This document shows positions 19,220 to 61,080 of a DNA stretch of 64,000 nucleotides, piece by piece; within the stretch, counting starts at the first letter, position 1; every line of letters begins with the position of its first letter. The notes beneath the pieces are model-generated. The model was not told the DNA's origin and ran no database searches. It saw only the letters and a program-made list of their open reading frames with translations. Source of the stretch: Raja brachyura (lineage: Eukaryota); NCBI GenBank assembly GCA_963514005.1, contig OY740811.1, forward strand, positions 24,986,001 to 25,050,000. The letters are read 5' to 3'. Made by a program: the position numbers and the translations under genes.

Positions 19220-20339
19220 GAGCTCTTATAACTTTTCGGTATCTTAATTCTTGAGTTTTCTTTCCCATTTACGAAAAGCAAATCTGTCAGTTGAAATAAC
19301 ATGTGACCTTTAGGAAAATGAATACAACAAAAGTAAATGTTTTAGAATATATTTGCACAAATGTCATGATGAATGTTTAAAGTTTACGGCGAGTTCCGTG
19401 CTTAAAGCAAGCATATTGTGCAGCTTTACAGTGTGGTGTGATTTTGCAAGCTTCCCTGCGCTGTGTGGAATGAAAGTATGGGCAATTATTACTAACGTGA
19501 CTAATTAAAAGATCTGTTAACTTCCATCCCTTTATCTTAAGGAATGACAATGATGGAACTGTGGTCTCCTTCAGCTATTCGTCTGCAACACTAAATTACA
19601 CTTATCAGAAAAAATGATGTTGGAAAGAATTAATCTTCAATTTCATTTTATTTACTTTTGCCCTAGTTTTTTCAATTATATGGAATGTGATGACATTATT
19701 GTCTGGTGTATTTTAATACTGTCTAGCCCCCTCACAACATTGGGGCTGTGTATATTGTGCATGGCAGTTTCCCGGTGACAACATCACTGCATTGTTTAAA
19801 AACTTAAATATTCTCAACCGCATCGATACAGCAAACTCTTTCACCTGATTGGTCTTTAAATGTTGGCAAGACTCCCTTCCTAAAAGCAGAAAGCTTATTG
19901 TGTGCAGTTGTTTGGTTAGTACAAGCTGGCAGAGATAAATCTCAACAGAAGTAGCATAACATTTTTAACAGGAGTAATCCTTACATACAGTGAGTGCCCT
20001 CCATAATGTTTGGGACAAAGACCCATCATTTATTTATTTGCCTCTGTACTCCACAATTTGAGATTTGTAATAGAAAAAAATCGCATGTGGTTAAAGTGCA
20101 CATTGTCAGATTTTATTAAAAGGTATTTTTATACATTTTGGTTTCAACATGTAGAAATATAGCAGTGTTTATACATAGTTCCCCCGTTTCAGGGCACCAT
20201 AATGTTTGGGACACATAGCTTCACAGGTGTTTGTAATTGCTCAGGTGTGTTTAAATGCCTCCTTAATGCAGGTATAAGAGAGCTCGCAGTAACCTAGTCT
20301 TTCCATCACCGTTGGAAACTTTTATTGCTGTTTATCAAC

Positions 20340-21663
20340 ATGAGGACCAAAGTTGTGCCAATGAAAGTCAAAGAAGCCATTATGAAACTGAGAAACAAGA
20401 ATAAAACTGTCAGAGACATTAGCCAAACCGTAGGCTTACCCAAATCAACTGTTTAGAACATCATTAAGAAGAAAGAGAGCACTGGTGAGCTTACTAATCA
20501 CAAAGGGACTGGCAGGCCAAGGAAGACTTGATGACAGAAGAATTCTCTCTATAATAAAGAAAAATCCCCAAACACCTGTCCGACAGATCAGAAACACTTT
20601 TCAGGAGTCAGGTGTGGATTTGTCAATGACCACTGTCCGCAGAAGACTTCATGAATGGAAACACTGAACGAGCTAATTCAAGAGCTCTCCAGAGTTTAAA
20701 AAAAAACTCGTGGTAAGCACGTAGAATGTACGTTGCGGGTACGTCGGAGCTTGGGACGTCTCTTAGCGGCTCGGAACGCTAATGGCAGGTACTCGCGAAA
20801 CGCGGTAAGCTCATGAAGACTCATGAAGATTTTTCAACATGTTGAATAATGCCCATGGGGGCCTCGAGTATGTACGAGCAGCCATTACCGCAATTCTCCG
20901 AGCTTGAATCAGGGGAAACTCGGGAGAACCCTAGAAATTAGCTCGTACAGTGGGACAGCCCCATGAGGCTTACTGCAAGATGCAAACCACTGGTTAGCTG
21001 CAAAAATAGGATGGCCGGGTTACAGATTGCCAAGAAGTACTTAAAAGAGCAACCACAATTCTGCAAAACGGTCTTGTGGACAGATGAGATGAAGATTAAC
21101 TTATATCAGAGTGATGGCAAGAGCAAAGTATGGCGGAGAGATGGAACTGCCCAAGATACAAAGCATACCACGTCATCTGTGAAACACAGTGGTGGGAGTG
21201 TTATGGTCCGGGCATGTATTGCTGCTGAAGGTACTGGCTCACTTATCTTCATTCATGATACAACTGCTGATGGTAGTAGCATAATGAATTCTGAAGTGTA
21301 TAGACACATCCTATCTGCTCAAGTTCAAACAAATGCCTCAAAACTCATTGGCCAGGAGTTCATTCTACAGCGACAATTATCCCAAACATAGTGCTAAAGC
21401 AACAAAGGAGTTTTTCAAAGCTAAAAAATGATCAATTTTCATTGACCAAGTTAATCGCCCAATCTGAACCCAATTGATCATGCCTTTTATATGCTGAAGA
21501 GAAAACTGAAGAGGACCAGCCCCCAAAACAAGCATAAACTAAAGATGGCTGCAATACAGGCCTGGCAGAGCATCACCAGAGAAGACTACCCGCAAATGGT
21601 GAGGTCCATGAATCCAGACTTCAAGCAGTCATTGCATGCTAAGGATATGCAACAAAATACTAA
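20340..21663 (+). pseudogene. Tc1 DD34E transposase pseudogene (stops, frameshifts, MITE insertion)
   Basis: MRTKVVPMKVKEAIMKLR...GTGRPRK (paired-like HTH, GRPR), TVRRRL, VLWTDE, VKHSGGSVMV, DNYPKH, SPNLNPID. Allowing one frameshift gives 34 residues between the second D and the E position. Confidence 0.93.
20662..20962. mobile_element. MITE nested in the Tc1 transposase (PIF/Harbinger-like by TIR)
   Basis: Left cactgaacgagctaatt and right aattagctcgtacagtgggacagcccc are inverted repeats; CpG-rich; the transposase resumes on either side. Confidence 0.75.
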
Positions 21664-22224
21664 ACATGACTACGTTCATTTACATGACATTGCTGTGTCC
21701 CAAACATTATGGTGCCCTGAAATGGGGGGACTATGTATAAACACTGCTGTAATTTCTACATGGTGAAGCCAAAATGTATAAAAATTGACTTTATTAAAAT
21801 CGGACGATGTGCACTTTAACCACATGTGATTTACTATTACAAATCTCAAATTGTGGAGTACAGAGGTAAAAAAATAAACGATGGGTCTTTGTCCCAAACA
21901 TTATGGAGGGCACTATGTCTACAGTGCAAAGAACTGATGTCCTCTGTTGTGTTGGTCATAAAATATTTAAGCTCTGAGATATGTCTCTTGGAGTTTAAAA
22001 ATAATCCAGGGCAGATGCATTAAATGATTTCTGTAACCAAGTATGTACCTTTAAAATTGCTCCTGCTCAAACATTTATGAGTTGGTGGTGTACAAGGTAA
22101 GCACGTGAGTAGGTGGTTAGGGGAGTGTGCGATGTTGAAATGTGCTAGTGGAAGCTTCTTCATGAGGTGGACTTCTAGTGCATTCACTGGTGATCAAAAA
22201 GGTCCAGAAGTCAAACACTAGATT

Positions 22225-22575
22225 TAAAAAAAACATGCTGGAACTAATCAGCGGGCCAGGCAGCATTTGTGGAGAGAGAGTTAACTTTTCAGGTTAAGAT
22301 CTTGATGTTTTGATCAAGATTTCAGCATCTGCAATTCTTTGTGGCTCCATTTTACAGCTGTGTTTTATATTGTCATGATGATCTGTCATGATTATCTGTC
22401 ATGATCAAGCAAAAAGAAACTGCTGGAGGAAGTCACAGGGTCAAGCAGCATCCGTGGAGGTAGAAAGCACTTTCTTGATGCAGGTCTTGACCTGAAATGT
22501 CAAATGTTCATTTTTCTCCACAGATACTGTCTGACCCATTGAGTTCCTCCAGTTTATTTGTCTTCTGCAGCTTCT
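22225..22575. mobile_element. Two old head-to-head Penelope pLTR pairs flanking a 13-bp x3 tandem repeat (22371-22405)
   Basis: Decayed gctggagga..cagcatc and gttcctccag inverted arms; tgtcatgatNatc repeated. Confidence 0.55.
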
Positions 22576-23149
22576 TGTGACTCCAGAATTAGATATCACG
22601 TCTGTCTTACTCGTGATGAGCAAGCTGAAAATCCACCACTGGAAACAGTTGATTTTGGCTAATCTTAATATGTATAGTCTTTTCTTTGACTTGATGGCAT
22701 GCAAACAAAAGCTTTTTCACTGTACCTTGGTATACATGACAATAATAAACAAACCTAAACTGATGACATTTCTTAACGAATATGACATTATCGGTATTGG
22801 TTTATTATTGTCATGTGTGATAATAGAGAGAGAAAATGTTGGAAGAATACCACACTGCTGGGTTAGCAGTGGCAACGTGCTGGAACCAATTGAGAATATG
22901 CTTCTGTATGAAACTGTACCTCTTTAGACAGTAGTCAGCCCAGGTTCAGTACAACTAAAGATGGGAATGAAGCCCATGTTCAGTTTGCTGTGTGCCCTCC
23001 ATGATAACACAATGCTTGGGGTGATTCCAAAGGGCTGTATGAAGACGATTAGGATGGCTGCACTGTACCACTTTCTGTCCTTGCTCTGGCCTGAGTTGTT
23101 TTGAGATTTCAAGCCTCTGCTTGGCAGAGCCAGCTCACGTGGACATTTT

Positions 23150-23254
23150 GTTTAAGAAGGAACAACAGATGCTTGAAAATCGAAGGTAGACAAAAGTGCC
23201 GAAGAAACTCAGCGGTTGCGGCAGCATCTATGGAGCGAAGGAAATAGGCAACGT
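23150..23254 (-). mobile_element. Short Penelope pLTR copy with 10-bp TSD
   Basis: tggacatttt at 23140-23149 and 23255-23264. Confidence 0.8.
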
Positions 23255-23611
23255 TGGACATTTTATAAGTTTTCCACGACTGTTACAGGCTGTCCGTATA
23301 ACTCTTGGGATCCTAAAACAAAAGAAGATTTTGTGGCCTGGAAGATGATGGATTTAATGAGCTTGTTTTAATTTGCAATGTTAAAATATAATCTCATAGA
23401 AAACTTAAGCAATTCTTGCAGAAAAATGCATTGCTATCGTCAATACATTTCCAATCAAATATGGTACAATTAATGTTCAAAATTTATACCTAGGAGGCTG
23501 TTGGACCTCAGGAATTTGGTTAGATGGAAGTGGCATTGTACAGTATCTTCCGAGCAGGTCTGCATTGTCTTGCCACGCCTATGTAATTCTCCTGAACCTT
23601 GCAATGTATTG

Positions 23612-23823
23612 GGGGTTACACAAAAAGCTGGAGAAACTCAGCGGGTGCAGCAGCATCTAAGGAGCGAAGGAGATAGGCGACGTTTCGGGTCGAGACCCTT
23701 CTTCGAGTCTGAAGAAGGGTCTCGCCTATCTCCTTCGCTCCTTAGATGCTGCTGCACCCGCTGAGTTTCTCCAGCTTTTTGTGTAACCCTCGATTCTCCA
23801 GCATCTGCAGTTCCTTCTTTAAC
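23612..23823 (+). mobile_element. Young mini-Penelope insertion: inverted pLTR plus pLTR, perfect 68-bp arms, 16-bp TSD
   Basis: Arms 23613-23680 and 23722-23789 are exact reverse complements; accttgcaatgtattg at 23596-23611 and 23824-23839. Confidence 0.93.
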
Positions 23824-25039
23824 ACCTTGCAATGTATTGTTGAGAACAAACACCTGGTTACAAATAGTTCATTCTGCTGGAATGACTCTGACAGACTGCA
23901 GAGTCATTTTCACTGAGTGAGTCTTATGGAAGCCGGTGATTCTATACTTCCAGTTTAAAAGTTGAGCAATGACCATCATGCTGTGACCTTGGTTCACAGC
24001 CCTGATGCTAATGGAGCTGCAGACTGTGTTGATGCCTGTGCTACATGCCACACCTCTGCAAAGCTGTTGCCGCCACTCAGAGCAACTACTACTTTCTACT
24101 TTTCCTGGACCTGCATGGAAGGTGCTCTCTCAATCATCAGTCAATTAAGCTACAGGCCAGTTACAAAGCAACTTTGCAATGGGTGCACTCCACCCTTGCA
24201 TGGGTGCTTTCAGTAGGACTGGGATTGTTTCACATCCAAATTAGATTCTTTCCTGGATACAGTGATCGGCACACTAATTTGCAAGCACTGAAGGCAAGCT
24301 GGCCTGTGGCATACAAACATGGGCTTTTTAAAATGGAGATTCTGGATGAGGCTCCAGTTGTTCCTGTACAGGCTCTTTGTACCTGTACAGATGAAACGAC
24401 TCTTCCAAACACCACAAAGCAAGAGGAGTGGCTTCAGTAAATATGCTGCTGAGAGCCAGCCCATAAAGACCCTACCAATGTAACTGGTTTGGAATGACTG
24501 CCTGCTTTATGTCGAAGCCACATAAAATGGTTTAACTGAAGCCTTTTGTTTTACTTAACTATTTCTCTTTAAAAGCATAACTTTATGCAATGTACCCAAA
24601 CATGGTTTGAATGCCCGAGAATGGTTATCTATTTAAACTTGATTGTATACGGGGTTTCTTTTCTTGGGACATGGGATACTGTCTAGCTATATTGCTGTAC
24701 TAAATCTCACTAGGACTTTATTCACCTGGTGTAGTACCATCGTTTAATCACAAGCTGCATTGGCTCCATCTGAGACACAAGCAATTAATGTTTTGCATTA
24801 ATTTCAAAATGCGCAAATACCTTGTTTAAAACAATATTATTTGTGGAGGGGAAATTGGGTTATGGAGATATCAATATTGCAAACAAATTAATTTTCTATT
24901 CTATTTTTTATAATGGCAGTTAAAATGAAATATAAACTTCAGCGTGCCTGATCTACATACTGCACTGTTGCCTACTGCACTGGTGCTGATGTTGGGAGCA
25001 AGAGCTCCCACTGCCACCATTTTCAAATTGGGAAGAAAT

Positions 25040-25077
25040 TGGGTCTGAAGAAGGGTCTCGACCCGAAACGTCACCCA
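25040..25077 (+). ncRNA. Minimal type I hammerhead ribozyme motif, best-preserved copy
   Basis: UGGGU-CUGAAGA-A-GGGUC-UC-GACCC-GAAAC-GUC|ACCCA: 5-bp stem I, stem II, palindromic ACGU stem III, predicted cleavage after C25072. Confidence 0.75.
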
Positions 25078-25897
25078 TTTGTTTTCTCCAGAGATGCTGC
25101 CTGTCCTGCTGAATTATACCAGCATTTTGTGTTTCCAAATGTCAAACTGTCAGGAAATTTCCGCTCTCCTAATTTCAGGTTCCAATCTGGATTTGTGTAT
25201 CCCATGTTTGCAGCCAATCTTTGATTTGAACTTTTCATACATTCAATTAATTTATCCTTTGTACCTCTAGTTTCCCTCTCCCCGACTCTCAGTCCGAAGT
25301 AATCCACCCGAAGCGTCACCTATTTCTTTTCTCCAGAGATGCTGCCTGTCCCGCTGAGTTACTCCAGCACTTTGTGTCACACCTGAGGCAGTTCACAATG
25401 ATTTTACCAGTGAAATGCACTGACATATTGTTGCAACAGAGGAAAATCAGGACTTAATGCATTCCCATCAGAAGATGGCATCTCTATAGACTTCCATAAT
25501 TAAGTGGCATATCATATTTTGATAAATGGATCTGTGGCAGTATTAAAAGAAGGGTTGTGATTATGCTTAAATGGATAGTTTTGACCCAATCATTGCTTCT
25601 TTATGGAATGCTCAGAATCTGCTAGTCACTGGCTCATTTCAGACATGTGAAAACAAATCATAGTGTTGAAATTGGGAACTACAGATTGGCCTTTGGTCCA
25701 ACCGTCTGCCTATCATAAGTTCTCCACACCTATGTTGACCTATTATCTGCCATGCTTCGTCCTGCCTCTCCCCTTTCCAGCTTTCTACTCCCCCTGCTAT
25801 AATCAGTCTGAAGTAGGGTATCGACCCGAAACGTCTCCTATTTATGTTCTCCAGAGATGCTGCCTGCCCTGCTAAGTTACTCCAGCACTTTGTGTTC
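25040..25897 (+). mobile_element. Three same-orientation Penelope pLTR copies (about 25040-25132, 25260-25378, 25700-25897)
   Basis: Each has a hammerhead-like box followed by ctccagagatgctgcctg..ctga.tta..ccagca.tttgtgt. Confidence 0.8.
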
Positions 25898-28800
25898 TTT
25901 TGTGACTATGTACATATACTTGGAATTCATCCTGTCTATGGCTCCCATTGCAAACTGGACTGGCGCCATCATTTTTGCTGTATGATCAGTGGAATTCATC
26001 AGCTGGCAATGGGAGTCGTTATATTTTGGTACTGTCCCACCAATTAGGGATTGGAGTTCATTATAGCTTTTGATAATAATTTTGCTGAAGGTCTTTTTGA
26101 AGTGTTTAAAGTGTTCAACAGATCAGAAAATGGCTCTTTTTACACCAGACTTAGAATTATTTCAGTTAGATTAGCTTTTAGGAGACTTTACAATATCGCA
26201 ATATGTTCTCATGTTAAATACAATTGTGTGGGTATTTCTTCCCCCCCCCCCCCCCTCCTCCCGGAAGGAATGTTTGGCTTAGCCACTGGGAATGATTGTT
26301 AGCAATGGCCTCTTTTTAATATAGACTGGATGAGGGGGAGGGATGGGGAGGTGGTGGGAAGGAATTACAAAAAAGGGTTTGTGTTATTTTTGCAATGCAG
26401 CAGGAGTTCTTTCAGGATTAAAAGAACAAAGTTCTTTTCAAGCTCAGTGAGCTGGCAATCTTAGGGCAGTTCCTTTTATATATTGCTAAAAAAAAAAATC
26501 CCAAATCATCTGCTACTGGGCGATGTGCACTATTTGTCTGGCTACACTTTGGCCCAGACCCACTGTTATGTCGGTTGCTATGGTGAGAAACATTTCAAGT
26601 GCCAGATTAAGAAAGAAACTGAACTGAAATGGGCAGAAATATGATCTGTGTTCGAGGGTGTGAATCAGAACACTACTTCAGGATTGGGTTGGCTGTATTA
26701 AACACTTTCTTTTCACCCCCACCACCACAAAAAGAAAGTATTGACTGACACCTTCCTGTTCCTTTCAACCAGAATTCAGGTTTCAGGCCTTTATAGGGTC
26801 TGTTTACAGATCAGTCAAAAAAGTAGCTGTACATTCAAAGCAGGTTTCATATCGGAATGTGTGTTTTCCTGCCTGCCTGCCGGCCTCAGGCATTGCCAAG
26901 TGTTGGCTGTTACAGTGGTTGTGTTTGCTCAACACATCTCAGACAGGCTGGCAATATGATAGTCTGACACCATGAAAGCATTACACTCAGTTTGACCTAA
27001 TAAGGACGTAAAAGTTTAAGAAGGAAAATAAAAGCTGCTTTCAGTTGGATAGTGTTCTTTCATTTTTAAAGATAGGAAAATAGAAAAGCTCAATTCAAAC
27101 TTAATTTTGAATTTAAAACCGGGCGAGAGGCCGATTTAATAAAACGGTGTGTATCCTGTTGAAGTATTGAACAGTTCTTAATGGCATTGCCAATAACATT
27201 GCAGAGTTTTATTTGGTTACAAACATTTGTGCTATTTAAATATTGCAGTCACATTCTAAATAAGATACATGTTGTAAATTAATGTAATAATGAATTGCAT
27301 TGTATGATTCTAACTGATCACCTACCATTTGGTTTGCAATCTTGACATGTTAGGAAAACACTTGTTTTTATTTCAAGAGAAAATGTCTCTTAAAAAAATA
27401 TTTTCTTGCTTATAGAAGAATATAAATTGCATCTTTCGCGAGGCGTTTGAAATGTTCAGTATTGCTGGAGGTCTGTCTATTAAGCCTTGAAAAGTACTAT
27501 CTCACCCCAAAATAGTTCTGACCCTTTAATCTAGTAACCTTAAGGGGCTTGGATATGTTGTTGGTTGGTGCCAATCACTACTTAATTTAATCCTGATGGC
27601 ATTGAATATTAAATGCAATTGATAAATAATTAAAATAAGGCCAAATGCTGTAAATATTGGAAATTTGAAAAATGTCAGGTTTCTTTTTGACCAGATTAGG
27701 CAGCATCTGAGGGCAGTCTCACTCTATCCTGACTTGGAAATGTTGCTCTCTTCCAGTGAAAGGGTTATACTCATGTGCTGTGTTCAATAAGAACTTCAGT
27801 AATTGGCTGTAGATTTTGTGAAAATAATAAAGATACGTGTGTAAAGATCATTTTACATGAAAAACTAATGGGAATAGCACTGCTAAGAAATGGACAAAGC
27901 GCTATGGTTTATTCACACAGGTCTTTTTTTGATTGTACCTTTTGGCCTCATTCAGTAGAATATTACTACTTGGGGAAGCTCAGCACAAAGTCTTTAAACA
28001 ATTTATTTGAACACTGAAGAATTTCTAAGTTTTTATGTCAGTTTGATGAGGAGGTTGGCAGAATTTAATTCTGTTTTTGCAGAAATTGAATATGCTTGCA
28101 TTCATTAATGTGTGTTCTTAGGCATTAATAATAGATTTGAACACTGGATGAAATACCTCCTGTTGATAACTTTCCTGGGAGAGAAGCCAGCAGTACTGCA
28201 GTCCAGTTTGTGTATCATTATACAAGCAAAAGTGTAACTTTCAATCCCTGAGTTGTGGGAAATTTGCAACCTGCAAAATGTAAGATGTATCTGCATATAT
28301 ATATTCGTTTTTTAAATGGGAAATGATAGTATATAGTCCAAAAAGTCAATCTCAGCTTTGTGATGTACAATGCCTCTGATCTTGACTGTGCTCATGTTTA
28401 TAATGGGTATGTCTCTTGACATTTAGCCATTGAGTGCATTTGAAGTACAGTCACTGCTCACAGGACGCTCTGTCCACAGCAGTATACAGATAAGCTATTG
28501 AGTAATCCTCCTCCCACTCTCTCGGCCCTTTGTGTGACATTAACTGCAGAGTACACGCTTCTTAGTGATTGGATTTTGAAACATGAAAGAACGGAGTAAA
28601 TTTCCTGGAAAGTGAATTCCGTGAATACTGTGACGGTGCCATACTCAGAATTGTTGCTTTCTGAGCGACATAGTTCTCTTTCATGCATTAAGGTAAATAT
28701 GCAGTCCACATTTTTTTTTTTCCTTAGCCAGCAGGCTCCTTCTAATTAACACCTATAATGGGCTGTCTGAAGTTTGACAATGGACATACAGTCTGTCACT

Positions 28801-29166
28801 TAAACCCATAGCTAACAAGTGGAACGTTTTTGTTTGGTTCCAGATATACCCATAAAAACATATTACTCCATCATATCAACCTGAAAATCCGGCATTCTTC
28901 TTTTAATGTGAGAGTTTAGATAGGCATCTGTTAGCCTACTTTCACTGTCTGATTCTTTGTAGCATCTCCTAAAGGTCATTGGGGACCAAGATGGAGTAGG
29001 ATGCTTGATTGGTTCTGCTTCTCTGTGGCTATTAAACCTGTCCATGATACTTCCTTATCAATGAGCCCCACATGTACCATTTTCAGGCAGTGGTGTTCTC
29101 CACATGTGCCCTGCCTGGTACTAACTCTCATTAGAATTTCTCCAGATGTTTCTGTTACTGCTGTAT

Positions 29167-29582
29167 TTTAGTTTAGTTTGCAGATACAGCACGGAAACAG
29201 ATGCCTCACCGAGTCCATGCCGACCAGCGATCGCCGTACATTAGCATTATCTTACACACTTGGGACAATTAAACAATTTTACCGAATCCAATTAACCTAC
29301 CAACCTGGAGTACACAAAATGCTGGAGAAACTCAGCGGGTGCAGCAGCATCTATGGAGCGAAGGAGATAGGTGGTACATATATATAGGTAATAGCCCAAA
29401 GATTAACCTACCAAACTGTACGTCTTTGGAGTGTGGGAGGAAACCGGAGCACCCGGAGAAAAATCACACAGTCACAGGGAGACGATACAAACTCTGTACA
29501 GATAGCACCTATAGTCAGGGTTGAACCTGAGCCCTTGGCACTGTAAGGCAGCAACTTTACCGCTGCGTCACTATGTCGCCCC
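29167..29582 (-). mobile_element. HE1-like tRNA-derived V-SINE interrupted by a Penelope pLTR piece (about 29310-29373)
   Basis: Minus-strand tRNA head, V-domain (ctccgggtgctccggttttcctcccaca) and (CTAAA)n tail; attaacctaccaa duplicated at 29291-29303 and 29402-29414. Confidence 0.85.
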
Positions 29583-32500
29583 TCCAATTTTTTTCCTCCA
29601 ACTCTATCTCGTGTTTGACAGTTCATCCCCAAGAGACAGCATATCAATCTTTGGAGGGGCATTTGCTTCCTGGTTCACCCAATGTTCCCTAAACACAGTA
29701 CACCCAAGCAACTGGTTATGAGACTTATTTCCTTATAATTGACCCAGTCACGTGCAACCCAAAGATCACTATCTTTACTTTCCCATTGCTAATATGCACT
29801 TCTCTCTTAGTTCATCCTTCACTGTATTCTTTGGTTCAGTATTCTAGTGTGTCCTGCGTGCACACTTCCAGGACCACTTCAACTATGCCATTACGACCCA
29901 GCAATTTCCCACAATCACATGCACAGTCCTTGTCACATCAGATGCACAAAGGTGAATTGCATCTAATGTGTCCAATTGAATTTCTGGAGCAGCCTAATCT
30001 TTCTATCTAGAAATGGCGGGAATTCATTCTTCCTCCAGATTTTTAAAAATATGCATAGTGTGGAAGGTAACAATGCTACTCATCCAAATGTTTATGCCAT
30101 GTTGTTTTCTTTTTACCACTTTAGTTGTTCTGTGGTTCTGAACAGTTTCCACAGCCGTGGCAATTTACACTCTATGTTGAACAATTTTCATAGATTTTTA
30201 TTGTTATTTTGGAAGCATTTTAAATTGGAGATGTGTCTTTCGTGGGTTTGAATATTATAATATAGATTTTTTTTTTTTAAAGGCAATGTCACTGTTGAAC
30301 AATTCTGGTGACAAGCAGAGATGGAGCTGTCTAGACTTGTACATTGGCCAAGTTTTGCAAGAGAATGTCTCCCCACATTAGCAGTAGTAACCAGATAGGC
30401 CGAACAATTTAAGTTTTATAGTCGAGTATTGTAAATAGCATGGAAATATTAGTGGGAATTTGGATACATGTGAATCCAATATTCACAGTATTCTCGGTGT
30501 TCGGTTACTAGGAATAAACAAGCCCAGACAACCTCATCTTCAATCTTTGTCATATTAGCTAATCAATTATTACATTGTTGGAGAACATCAATGGGTGCTT
30601 CTAGATTAGAATCAGAACCACTGAACAAATAAATGCACAGTAGTTTTCCTGTATGTGTTAACTGTAGGCCATTTTGCCATTTTTAAATTGCTTCTGATCA
30701 CCGTTTATTGGGTGGGAAGGAAAGTAACACACAATGAGCACAAATGAAACACCTACAAGGCAGAAACTTTCATTACACCATCGAGTGTTGCCAATTCCTA
30801 GCCCCTTCCAATGTAATGGCCAATTTTGCGCCCAATGATTTCAATAATTGCCTTTTAAATGAAACATCTGTGGCATTGAAATTTTAGGAAATGATAAAGT
30901 TCAGTCAGAAATTGGCTGAAGATTTAAGAGCAAAACATGCTAATAACAAAAAATGTCTGCACGTTATCAAATTGATAGGGTAATTTTCTTCTCCATTCTC
31001 TCCCCTCCCCATGGACGGAATCTCATTAGGGTTTGTTTTGTTGATGCTGATTGTGCTTCACCAGCTGGCTTCATTCAACGGTGAACCTTGTCAGTGAGTG
31101 TTGGCAGGCTGTCAGATGTAGGGACATTACAGATGCGTCCAGTTCTGTTAGTTGGTACTGCCTCAATAACAATCAGGAGCCCTGGTCAGCTTTTCTTTTT
31201 CCCTAACCCAAAGCTGTTAATGCAGCAGCTCTGACTAAAATCAGTGAATCAGTACCGACCAACGCTCAGTTCCTGATCTTCAAAGATTTGAGCTGGGAGT
31301 GGGCATAATTTCCTTAAATTAAAAACCAATATTAAGAGCAAAAGCATTTTGTGTAGCGTATTGCTTGCCCCTGTGGAATTTAGTGAAGGTAAGAAAGGAC
31401 AGGCATTTTGTTGCACATTTTAAAGATTTGTAGGTGGGAGGTAAAAGTCTTTAATTTGGCCTGGGAGGACGATGAGTTTGAGCATGAAAACTCCAGTACT
31501 TATCTCTGGGAGAAAGCTATTCCTGCTGAATGTTTATGGGAATTATTTGAGAGCACATGCTGGGAATAACTTAATTCCTATAACCGCTTTTAATAAGGCT
31601 GCATTAAATGGTCAAACTCACTGTTAAACACTGTGCCGGTGTAACACAGGTGGAGTTTGGCTTCTCTACCAAGCTAGAAATATTGCACATTTTCAGAACG
31701 ATTTCCTCTCTGCCTCCATGATACCAAGATCTTTACAATGATTTTAAAATAATTCTTTGTGCAATGTAGATAGAGAAAACTTTCCCAGCTTAGGGTACGT
31801 CTCAAATGAGTGTCTTTAAATTGTCCCTGAAGATTGTATGGGAGGATATGATTTAGCCAGAGGAGTTTCAGTATATGCAGAATAAAATACCAAGAGTTTA
31901 TTATCTAAACAATGTCAGCGACAAAGCTGCAATCCTAGCGCCAGAGTGATGAGTTAGGGGATGAGCCATAAGCAGATGAATATAAGAGATCACATATTTA
32001 TCTAGGATACTACACTGTGCGTTGCATAATTCTGCTCAATGCTTTGCTTATTACAGAGTGCATAACCATTTAATCTAAAGTACTATTGTGGATCCTGCTT
32101 TTGAGAGGAATCATTCTCTGTAACTGGGTGTTAAGGTTGGTTCTGGGTTCAAGCTATTCTTCGGAGTCTGAACCAATGTTGTAGTCTGGCGTTGAATGTG
32201 CATTGCACTCTTGGGTGCAATCTAGAACCTGATCAGAATCTGGAAAAGCACTTTAAACTCATGGTCTCTGACGGGCTTGCTCTTGCAGAATTTTAAAGCT
32301 TGCTAGGTCCAACGGATTCTCAGAACTTTGGTCCACAGAATTGCTGGAGAATATCAAGGACCCAGATTATGGCAGAATGGTAGAGAAGAGGTGCAAGTTT
32401 GGAGGGCTGAGAGCAGGTTGGAATCTTGAGTTGGGTTGGGAAAGAGTGGGGAAGAGAAAAACAGATCATGTCTGCATTCAGTTGCTGGAAGCAGGATGGG

Positions 32501-32870
32501 ATTTGGTTCATCTGCTAACGGTGCATCCCAAACTTTCTGAGGTTGAGGATTTTGGAATTATAATTGAATGGATGGTTGGGGAGGAGTGTAGGTGACATCT
32601 GGGAAAGGGACTATCAAGGCATAAGATTGGTACAAGAGGAATAATGCCCTTAGTGCTGGAAACCAGGGGGAAGCAGCTCTGGCATGTGCTGTGGAGAATT
32701 ACATCTGCAAAAACGGTTTACGCCATACCTGGAAGTGCCGTCCAGGGGTTGAGTGCCATGAGGTGTTACTGTTTGTGCCTGGGAACCTCCATGTTTCAGC
32801 CTGTGAAGAAGGGAAACGGAGAGCTTTGTGATGTAGAAATGTTGTGGTTAGCAATGTCATTTCCAGGCCA

Positions 32871-33090
32871 AAGATAGACACAGAGTGCTGGAGCAACTCA
32901 GTGGGTCAGACAGCATATCTAGTGAAAAGGAACAGGTGACGTTTCAGGTCAGAACTCTTCGTAATCTGAACAAGAGTTCTGACCCTAAATAGCACCTGTT
33001 TCTTTTCTCCAGAGATGCTGCCTGACCCACTGTGTTGCTCCAGCACTTTGTGTCTATCTTCGGCATAAACCCGCATCTGCAGTTCATTTC
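32871..33090 (+). mobile_element. Head-to-head Penelope pLTR pair (older)
   Basis: 32871-32958 is an imperfect reverse complement of 32968-33060. Confidence 0.8.
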
Positions 33091-34004: not shown

Positions 34005-34330
34005 CATCCACCCGTTCACACCAGGGAGCAATTTACCGAGGCCAGTAACCTGCATACCTGCAAGTCTTTGGCATGTGGGGAGAAACTTGAGCACCCATAG
34101 GAAACCCATGTGGTCTTGGAGAGAACATGCAAACTCCCCACAGACAGCAACCGAGGCCAGGTTCGAACTCACACCTCTGATGCCGTGAGGAATCTGCTCT
34201 CTAATCTGTCTGAAGAAAGGTCTCATAATCTGTTCATACCCTCTCCAGGTGCTGCCTGACCCGCTGAGTACCTCCAGCACTTAGTATTTTGTTCAAGATT
34301 CCAGTGCCTGAAGTTCCTTGTGTCTCCACA
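34005..34330. mobile_element. Degenerate V-SINE (minus, about 34005-34190) next to a Penelope pLTR (plus, about 34205-34330)
   Basis: gagaacatgcaaactcc V-domain complement; ctgaagaaaggtctc...gctgcctgacccgctgag. Confidence 0.7.
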
Positions 34331-43596: not shown

Positions 43597-43832
43597 TAAG
43601 TTCATAAGTTATAGGTGCTGAAATAGGTCATTCGGTCCATCAAGTCCAGTCCGCTATTCTTGGCTCCACAGCCTTCTGTGGCAATGAATTCCACAGATTC
43701 ATCACCCTCTGACTAAAGAAATCCCTCCTCATCTCCTTTCCAAAGTTACATCCTTTTATTCTGAAGCTATAGCCTCTGATCCTGGACTAGCCCACAAGTG
43801 GAAATATCCTCTCCGTCCACTCTATCCAGGTC
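43597..43832 (-). mobile_element. CR1-like LINE 3' fragment
   Basis: Minus strand encodes FFSQRVMNLWNSLPQKAVEP-like sequence; (ACTTATGA)n tail. Confidence 0.82.
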
Positions 43833-44840
43833 TTTCCTCCGTCTACGCTACATCTACGCCCAGGATGAGTTTTTCCATTTCGGGTCATCGGAGATGTCCT
43901 CGTTCTTTAGGAAATGGGGGTTCCCCTCTTCCATTACAGATGAGGTTCTCACTAGGGTCTCCTCGAAATCCTGCAGCTCTGCTCTTGCTCCTCCTCCCCC
44001 CATTCGTAACAAGGACAGAGTCCCCCAGGTCCTCACCTTCTACCCCATCAGCCGTCGCATACAGCATATAATCCAGCAACATTTTTGCCACCTCCAACGG
44101 GATCCCACTACTGGCCACATCTTCCCGTCTTCACCCCTCTCTATTTTCCGCAGAGACCATTCCCTCTGCAACTCCCTCGTCAACTCGCCCCTTCCCACCC
44201 AAACCACCCTCTCCCCAGGTACTTTCCCCTGCAACCGCAGGAGATGCAACATCTGTCCCTTTACCTCCTCCCTCGACTCCATCCAAGGACCCCAACAGTC
44301 TTTTCAGGTGACGCAGAGGTTCACTTGCACCTCCTCCAACCTCATCTACTGTATCCGCTGTTCCAGGAGTCAACTGCTGTACATCAGCAAGACCAAGCGC
44401 ACGCTCGGCGATCGTTTCGCTGAACAACTCCGCTCAGTCCGTCTTAACCTATCAGATCTCCCGGTTGCTCAGCACTTTAACTCCCCCTCCCATTCCCAAT
44501 CTGACCTTTCTGTCCTGGGTCTCCTCCATTGTCAGTGAGGCCCAGCGCAAATTGGAGTGACAAACAGCACGTCATATTTTGCTTGGGTAGCTTACACCCC
44601 AGCAGTATGAACATTCTGATGAACAAGTATGACTTCTCTAACTACAAATAGCCCTCTCTCCCCATCCCCTCCCCCTTCCCAGTTCTCCCACCCCTCTTAC
44701 TGTCTCCGACTGCATTCTATCTCTGTCCCGCCCACTCCCCTGACATCAGTCTGAAGAGGGGTCTCGACCCAAAATGTCACCCATTCCTTCTCTCCAGAGA
44801 TGCTGCCTGTCCCGCTGAGTAGACATTTTGTGTCTACCCA
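43832..44840 (+). mobile_element. Penelope-like element 3' part: RT thumb/linker, GIY-YIG endonuclease pseudogene and pLTR
   Basis: SFLRLRYI...VPQVLTFYP...GTFPCNRRRCNICP...FTCTSSNLIYCIRCSRSQLLYISKTKRTLGDRFAEQLRSV...PVAQHFNSPSHS; hammerhead-like box at 44750-44780. Confidence 0.93.
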
Positions 44841-46003: not shown

Positions 46004-46282
46004 ATGCCACACCGCAGCTGGTAGAGCTGCTGCCTCACAGGGCTAGAGACCCAAGTTCGATCCTGACCTTGGGTGCTGTTTGTGTGGAGATTGCACGTTC
46101 TTCCTGTGACACATAGGTTTTCTTAAGAGTGCTCCGGTTTCCTCCCAAACCTCAAAGACGTACGTGTTTGTAAGTTGATTGGCTGCTGCAAATTACCCGG
46201 AGTATTTAGCGACTGGATGCAAAAGTGCGATAACATAGGACTAGTGTGGTCTGCGTGGATTTGGTGGGCCGAATGGCCTGTT
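46004..46282 (+). mobile_element. HE1-like V-SINE
   Basis: B box gttcgatcc, V-domain, and CR1-derived tail gggccgaatggcctgtttcc. Confidence 0.85.
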
Positions 46283-46684: not shown

Positions 46685-46975
46685 GACTTTAAAGATATGG
46701 TGCGGAAATAGGCACTTCACCCCACCGAATCGTCGCAGATCAGCGATCACCCCTTCCTAGCACTAGAAACACTAGGGACAACTTACAATTTTACCGAAGA
46801 CAATTAACCTACAAATCTGCATGTCTTTGGAGTGTGGAAGGAAACCAGAGCACCCAGAGTAAACCCACGCAGTCGCAGGGAGAACATACAAACTCCGTAT
46901 AGACAGCACCTGTAGTCAGGATCAAATCTGGGTTTCTGGAGCCGTAAGGCAGCAACTCTACCGGTGTGCCACGGC
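46685..46975 (-). mobile_element. HE1-like V-SINE
   Basis: Reverse complement of the same SINE. Confidence 0.85.
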
Positions 46976-51050: not shown

Positions 51051-51262
51051 TTAAGGACGCAAAGTGCTGGATAACTCGGCGGATGAATCAGCATCTCTGG
51101 AGAACCTGGGTCGGTTACATTTCGTGTTGGGACCGTTCTTCAGACGAGACCTAAAACATCCCATATCCATGTTGTCCGGGGATGCTGTCTGAACTGCTGA
51201 GTTATTCCAGCACTTTGTGTCCCTTTGTGTAAACCCGCACCTACAGTTCCTTGTTTCTACAC
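51051..51262 (+). mobile_element. Head-to-head Penelope pLTR pair with probable 11-bp TSD
   Basis: aacgattgaac (51040-51050) and aacaattgaac (51263-51273); inverted arms meet at ttcttcagac. Confidence 0.78.
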
Positions 51263-54514: not shown

Positions 54515-54762
54515 GTTTAGTTTAGTTTACAAATACAGCGTGGAAGCAGGCTATTCGGCACACAGAATCCGCACCGACCAGCAATCACCTTTACAGTGTC
54601 TAGGTCAATTTTCTAGAAGCCATTTCACTTTACAAACCTACACGTCTTTGGAGTGTGGGAGGAAACCAGAGCACTCGAAGTAAACCCACGTAATCACTGG
54701 GAGAACTTACAAACACTGCACAGTCAGGATCGACCCAGGTTTCTGGCGCTGTAAGGCAGCAA
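54515..54762 (-). mobile_element. HE1-like V-SINE
   Basis: (TTTAG)n tail complement, V-domain complement, B box complement. Confidence 0.82.
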
Positions 54763-60929: not shown

Positions 60930-61080
60930 GGGCACAAAATGCTGGAGTAACTCAGCGGGTCAGGCAGCATCTCCGGAGAAAAGATTCTTTTTTTCCAGAG
61001 ATGATGCTTGACCGGCTGAGTTATTCTAGCTTTTGTGTCTATCTTCGGTGTAAGCCAACATCTGCAGTTCCTTCCTACAC
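60930..61080 (+). mobile_element. Head-to-head Penelope pLTR pair lacking the hammerhead box
   Basis: cacaaaatgctggagtaactcagcgggtcaggcagcatctccggagaaaa is inverted to ttttccagagatgatgcttgaccggctgagttattctagcttttgtg. Confidence 0.8.

Follow-up and report, generated by a model that had tools for sequence, protein, structure and literature searches.

A minimal type I hammerhead motif in a solo Penelope-like element stub of the Raja brachyura genome

Minimal hammerhead ribozymes in the pLTRs of metazoan Penelope-like elements (PLEs) were described by Cervera and De la Pena 2014 (PMC4209133). As described there, these motifs combine the hammerhead core boxes with an unpaired base between positions 9 and 10.1, a G10.1-C11.1 pair and a palindromic 15.1-16.1 stretch without helix III, and they occur in pLTRs as thousands of dispersed single copies. 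Stem II is 7-8 bp long in S. mansoni and stem I is 2 bp long in D. virilis. A single minimal motif from S. mansoni did not cleave and its dimers were weak (PMC4209133); dimer cleavage of small PLE hammerheads is credited to Lunse et al. (PMC5785218), as cited in PMC6765202. In the Anolis Poseidon element PAc (Frangieh et al. 2024, PMC11167929) the hammerhead lies at the pLTR-ORF junction with the ORF starting within it, two internal reverse transcriptase start sites define the tail and uncut, unprocessed RNA is the main template. PAc was assayed in vitro, where its hammerhead cut once the protein of the element was added; cleavage was reported only with protein, and RNA-seq showed no transcript ends where the hammerhead would cut. 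The EN+ Neptune PLEs (Craig et al. 2021, PMC8557442) are elements with a reverse transcriptase (RT), a C-terminal GIY-YIG endonuclease and a cysteine linker (CX2-5CxxC), found as partial tandems and inverted 5′-truncated copies with a 30-40 bp tail. For Penelope of D. virilis an internal-promoter start inside the pLTR was reported, with an intron between this start and the hammerhead (Schostak et al. 2008, PMC2377424); this intron ends where helix I begins on its 5′ side (PMC4209133). No publication joining hammerhead, Penelope and elasmobranch was found in the literature searched, and the supplementary vertebrate examples of PMC4209133 may include cartilaginous fish.

The sequence analysed here, termed the window, is the whole stretch of 64,000 nucleotides from the genome of R. 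brachyura. At 25040-25077 its letters read TGGGT (25040-25044), CTGAAGA (25045-25051), an extra A (25052) and GGGTC (25053-25057), followed by a TC loop, GACCC (25060-25064), GAAAC (25065-25069), GTC (25070-25072) and ACCCA (25073-25077). A sequence-only reading had taken this stretch for an intact minimal hammerhead in a Penelope pLTR, and every core letter and stem was found as claimed. The boxes CUGANGA, GAAA and NUH are all present in 25045-25072, helix II is closed by G10.1-C11.1 and the unpaired base between 9 and 10.1 is there. Helix III is absent and the palindromic 15.1-16.1 is present as ACGU; this palindrome and the extra base are both as in PMC4209133. Helix I, at 5 bp, lies within the short range of 2-5 bp. 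Stem II comprises 4-5 bp, shorter than in S. mansoni, and the native stem I of the family is 2 bp as in D. virilis, whereas the 5 bp are specific to this copy. A relaxed core pattern matched 268 times in 1.14 Mb (window and loci) versus 3 times in shuffled sequence, and the motif is therefore no accident. The covariance-model search that had been proposed as a check did not recover it: no Rfam hammerhead family matched, with a cut-off of E≤1 for 20000-32000 and of E≤10 for 24990-25140, and only weak miRNA and other chance matches were returned. Its sequence features place the motif among the minimal hammerheads known from the pLTRs of metazoan PLEs, and it is classified as a minimal type I hammerhead of a Neptune-type PLE. 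The features at and around it are collected in Table 1.

Table 1. Features of the hammerhead-bearing stub and its surroundings, in window positions.
Feature	Position	Strand	Basis or remark
Solo 5′-truncated pLTR stub of a Neptune-type PLE (hammerhead core and 60-nt tail)	25043..25132	+	repeat family D2
Minimal hammerhead core (CUGAAGA, extra A, stem II, GAAAC-GUC)	25045..25072	+	letters; features as in PMC4209133
Stem I 5′ arm	25040..25044	+	native part GT (25043-25044); upstream letters in native copies YCAGT
Stem II arms	25053-25057 with 25060-25064	+	direct reading of letters
Palindromic ACGU	25068-25071	+	direct reading of letters
Predicted cut	after C25072	+	
Stem I 3′ arm (first letters of the family tail)	25073..25077	+	letters
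Candidate left target-site duplication	25020..25028	+	8/9 match to right copy; not significant
Candidate right target-site duplication	25132..25140	+	not significant
Candidate 14-nt filler between target-site duplication and element	25029..25042	+	
Exact 8-nt direct repeat, overlapping the stem I 5′ arm	25025-25032 and 25036-25043	+	P 0.006 in random flanks, post hoc
Same-strand family neighbour, core broken	25288..25378	+	
Same-strand family neighbour, A9 changed and stem I mismatched	25806..25896	+	

The Penelope setting of the motif was borne out by its longer relatives. At two loci (L202 and L203) the motif follows frames of 967 and 1048 aa with RT and C-terminal GIY-YIG matches (RVT_1, E 1e-4 and 9e-4; GIY-YIG, E 1e-3; both under the cut-offs of Pfam), and the linker between RT and endonuclease reads C-X4-C-X2-C in both aligned proteins, corresponding to the cysteine feature described in PMC8557442. 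In two further loci (L204 and L205) the motif flanks each of the tandem units, about 3,968 nt long, on either side. It thus lies in the pLTR of a PLE, as do the motifs of PMC4209133, and the first ATG of these units lies about 135 nt beyond the predicted cut, unlike the ORF of PAc. Partial tandems, inverted 5′-truncated copies and a 30-40 bp tail were all found in the family. In the window itself, a 5′-truncated PLE at 43780-44820 retains a C-terminal frame, a native pLTR and a mutated hammerhead, the motif lying after the ORF end at 44749. Pfam gave nothing in the frame of this copy (43780-44535), and its placement rests on an identity of 71% over 234 aa to the 967-aa frame. Because RT/GIY-YIG frames precede the motif and tandem units carry it at both ends, the parent, judged by ORF domains and structure, is assigned to the Neptune-type PLEs. 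The stub differs from the described EN+ Neptune PLEs in being without the coding part.

Relative to the cut site, the start of the stub was called at −30 and its end at +60. Against a typical copy it showed 0 changes in the 30 core letters and 7 in the 60 tail letters, the tail being compared by eye. The window holds about two dozen fragments of this family (24 BLAST hits), and an unchanged core in a copy picked among them as the best-looking is not remarkable. Head-to-head inverted pairs of the family were seen at 23608-23794, 32867-33064, 51057-51220 and 60933-61038, the first of which gives false miRNA matches in Rfam. At several places, exact-core copies form pairs in opposite orientation (L226/L261 and similar pairs), spaced by about 477 nt and bordered by identical letters, and these are possibly a secondary element carrying two pLTR ends. 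In the whole 2.7-Gb genome the 31 letters 25045-25075 occurred exactly in 12,457 copies, with 0 for a reversed-pattern control. In 10-kb stretches, mostly centred on young copies, 82 of 276 copies kept every core letter, and 61 of these also the four stem II pairs. An intact core is thus not special to the copy at 25040-25077, which has more than 12,000 equals in the genome. N7 variants numbered 4,673, and the 100 matches listed look like the same family.

Contigs of three organisms, one of which may be the window's own sample, covered the stretch from 24600 to 25064-25066 with 0, 0 and 1 differences, and the 5′ arm and the first 22-24 core letters were identical in them. Since they share both, the insertion and its 5′ arm are inherited. 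No orthologous empty site was found among the joints and pieces listed, which were saturated by family copies. No Pfam match to a host gene was obtained in the window at E≤0.01 for 140 of the 401 unmasked open frames and two others. Elsewhere in the window, inverted repeats at 19993-21914 surround the frames 20942-21391 and 21455-21766, which resemble a Tc1/mariner transposase relic, although Pfam returned nothing for them at E≤0.01. Another family of short dispersed repeats (D6, D7 and D13), presumably SINE-like, occurs at 29402-29571, 34051-34147, 46803-46972 and 54631-54727, with further positions at 46030, 50149, 58835 and 61790.

The starts of the copies were clustered just upstream of the core. 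When only the tail was used to find copies (identity of 90% or more, core-chosen centres removed), 319 were obtained, of which 94 started at −33 to −29, 45 reached −60 or beyond and 4 started at the cut site; the start profile of 222 more diverged copies, counted apart, was of the same shape. Genome-wide, 6,391 exact-core copies started at G−30 and 4,956 at A−31, with non-native letters before. By eye, a G preceded the start in 67 of 100 (G−30) and 55 of 100 (A−31) of the matches listed, where about 30 were expected. A scripted check of the first 30 matches of each listing confirmed this tally (20 of 30 at G−30), and in its unique-flank subset the extra G was found in 16 of 23 and 12 of 24. 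Target-site duplications with a score of at least 10 accompanied 28% of 123 solo copies versus 0.1% of swapped flanks. The 3′ ends of these copies formed two clusters, one of 78 copies at +60-79 and one of 39 at +90-109, resembling the tail defined by two internal start sites in PAc. The stub fits this profile by its start at G−30, the preceding G and the end at +60, and its own candidate target-site duplication scores 6, which swapped flanks reach in 12% (P 0.12).

When they reach a cap, reverse transcriptases add one base opposite it. The pile-up of starts together with the extra G suggests that these are copies of the start of a capped, uncut transcript, and TCAGTC at the copy starts resembles an initiator. 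The RNA of the element would then start at TCAGT just before the core, and the reverse transcriptase would start within this RNA, at a point about 65 or about 100 nt downstream of the cut site, and run off its 5′ end. The cap would template the extra G that makes the third stem I pair, and the fourth and fifth pairs would come from filler or flank. The reading that we favour, and hold to be probable, is that the stub is a PLE end piece copied from such an uncut and probably capped 5′ end, that its stem I was completed by chance and that it is now a passive relic which cuts itself in vivo rarely if at all. The internal-promoter start of Penelope in D. virilis offers a precedent for a start inside the pLTR, although the inferred start lies here only 2-3 nt before the core instead of upstream of an intron (PMC2377424), and uncut RNA as the main template is shared with PAc. 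A start pile-up with an extra G across a family was not encountered in print within the limited literature searched.

Against the favoured reading it may be held that start site and cap are deduced from DNA, and that a pyrimidine tract with CAG, a splice acceptor, sits at the same place. The TCAGT pile-up might instead mark a 3′ splice site or a reverse transcriptase stop, with an upstream exon completing a working stem I. The divergent pLTR subfamilies do each carry, in their long copies, a pyrimidine tract and YCAGT right in front of the core, and the intron end at helix I in D. virilis (PMC4209133) is in line with splicing at this point. However, copies starting at TCAGT share no upstream exon, their target-site duplications often lie 0-2 nt from the copy start and the extra G fits a cap, which makes a splice site or stop improbable.

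Stem I is where the copy at 25040-25077 departs from its parent. The native YCAGT can form no more than 2 bp with the tail, and full-length elements have a stem I of this length. The number of contiguous stem I pairs was exactly 2 in 139 of the 276 copies, 4 in 10 and 5 in 3. The exact 38-mer with the 5-bp stem I was present in 65 copies genome-wide, as compared to 49 and 20 for control arms mispaired at the fourth position. In the 5′ arm of this copy, G25042 is probably the additional G that many copies show at their start, and TG (25040-25041) is non-element filler or flank. In seven of the 42 exact-arm copies examined, a long inversion folds back with its apex at stem I; in 19 another inverted copy lies within 60 nt, and 16 have none; the present copy belongs to the last group. 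The 5-bp stem I is accordingly non-native, arises near chance and goes back to a fold-back in no more than roughly a sixth of the copies that have it. In one other copy (L031) the letters T, G and G of the arm sit within the target-site duplication. Seven copies with a TTG-GT arm within 370 kb (G000:C24:4887491-5251738) are likely a segmental or tandem duplication.

It had been suggested that the 5′ arm looks like a micro-inverted copy of the downstream pLTR and that this inversion may have supplied the stem. In such a course of events, a short fold-back at insertion would have copied the start of the tail to the 5′ side, and the piece would since have decayed. The mechanism does occur in the family, as seen from the seven fold-backs with the apex exactly at stem I and from an inverted piece upstream in 118 of 320 classified copies, and most of the 5 bp are indeed non-native. 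At the locus itself, the candidate duplication leaves a 14-nt filler whose ends resemble the reverse complement of the tail, and RNAfold lengthens stem I by 7-8 pairs. However, complementarity beyond the 5 bp scores 3 versus 20-28 in the true fold-backs, a value that random flanks reach at P 0.09, or P 0.06 for the best of eight tail variants (total range P 0.04-0.10), and the stem I extension gave P 0.04 against a one-base neighbour but P 0.27 as duplex energy. The duplication that would define the filler is not significant, and chance alone yields tens of such arms, as the control arms demonstrate. The exact 8-nt direct repeat, whose partner begins 11 nt upstream of the copy at the stem I arm, explains the arm at least as well. 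An inversion was thus not established here, and we regard it as a tentative and rather doubtful source of the stem; the 14 nt may possibly be a degraded micro-inversion, a local re-copy or plain flank. Most likely the 5-bp stem I was completed by chance at insertion.

The seven long fold-backs (L033, L037, L038, L046, L055, L057 and L164) have one arm from the predicted cut site and the other from the 5′ edge of the motif. Their hammerhead core thus sits on an extended stem I, and they are the best natural candidates for an assay of activity.

Folding of the 38-mer gave stems I and II with −11.1 kcal/mol, a stability not above that of shuffled sequences (z −0.69), and the folding z-scores of the five stretches were not significant. 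Across five contexts at 25040-25077 stems I and II were predicted, with stem I pair probabilities of 0.5-0.99, as against 0.0 in the native context in two folds of one full-length element copy. Since both stems are predicted here and not natively, the copy may be a better ribozyme than its parent, which counts against a merely passive relic. So do the unchanged core beside a changed tail, and the arm and core start kept identical in the contigs of three organisms. The modelled active dimer (−22.1 kcal/mol) gained nothing over two monomer cores (2 × −11.1 kcal/mol). In the dimer mechanism, which is established for type I hammerheads, the core of a second molecule would cut the bond after C25072, and a dispersed single copy would rarely meet such a partner. 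No intact same-strand partner was present within 800 nt downstream, the cores at 25288 and 25806 being broken, and rescue in cis with the 25288 copy as substrate was dismissed at a probability of 4e-5.

A footprint of cleavage was sought in the copies themselves. Of 438 apparent cut-site starts genome-wide, 30 were inspected and 13 were true 5′ ends, corresponding to about 190 in all; the remaining 17 were rejected, as they still had the core upstream and owed their appearance to an internal deletion or indel. The comparison positions had about 176 true 5′ ends at +5 and about 49 at −5, the three patterns differing in length and CpG content. There may be a small excess of 5′ ends at the cut site, which are commoner than at −5, a point against the favoured reading, but not commoner than at +5, and no sharp 5′-end peak was found there. 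A recurrent internal deletion that runs between the two occurrences of ACCC in the motif (L282, L289, L296, L302, L307, L309 and others) removes the GAAAC-GUC half and mimics a cut-site start. Stem II changes between subfamilies were one-sided wobbles only. Two-sided covariation in stem II amounted to 1 cell in 70 distinct rows, with no excess over shuffles in what is one young family with little power; within this genome the motif may differ in that respect from the minimal hammerheads of PMC4209133, for which compensatory stem changes among the families of one genome are a described feature.

The sequence-only reading had also proposed that this copy may still cut itself after C25072, and this part of it we judge to be weak. 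A copy with completed stem I could be a working ribozyme that cuts if transcribed, helped by the element protein or by a second transcript. Every core letter at 25045-25072 is intact, both stems are predicted to form, three organisms retain the insertion with its arm and the Anolis hammerhead does cleave with protein (PMC11167929). The motif has, however, no stem III as a monomer, and to this are added the lack of gain in the modelled dimer, the broken neighbouring cores with the negligible use of the next copy in cis and the absence of two-sided covariation, the last in one young family. We consider such activity very unlikely, and the copy probably does not cut itself in the animal. Because the 5-bp stem I was likely completed by chance, the passive relic with little or no cleavage in vivo is the reading retained.

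As one of more than 12,000 intact cores in a published class, the single locus matters little. The copy at 25040-25077 is nevertheless a natural test construct, the family core with a longer stem I, and a comparison of the completed with the native 2-bp stem I bears on whether these ribozymes are kept quiet by the length of stem I. What Penelope hammerheads do is a question on which the pile-up of starts with the extra G across the family has a bearing. It is conceivable, and in our estimate extremely unlikely, that the element keeps its hammerhead off by starting the RNA 2-3 bases before the core, and that accidents at insertion (a cap-derived G, host flank or a fold-back inversion) complete stem I and switch single copies on, this copy among them. 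If true, the 65 exact 5-bp copies, about 11 of them long hairpins, would be a pool of new ribozymes cutting host transcripts.
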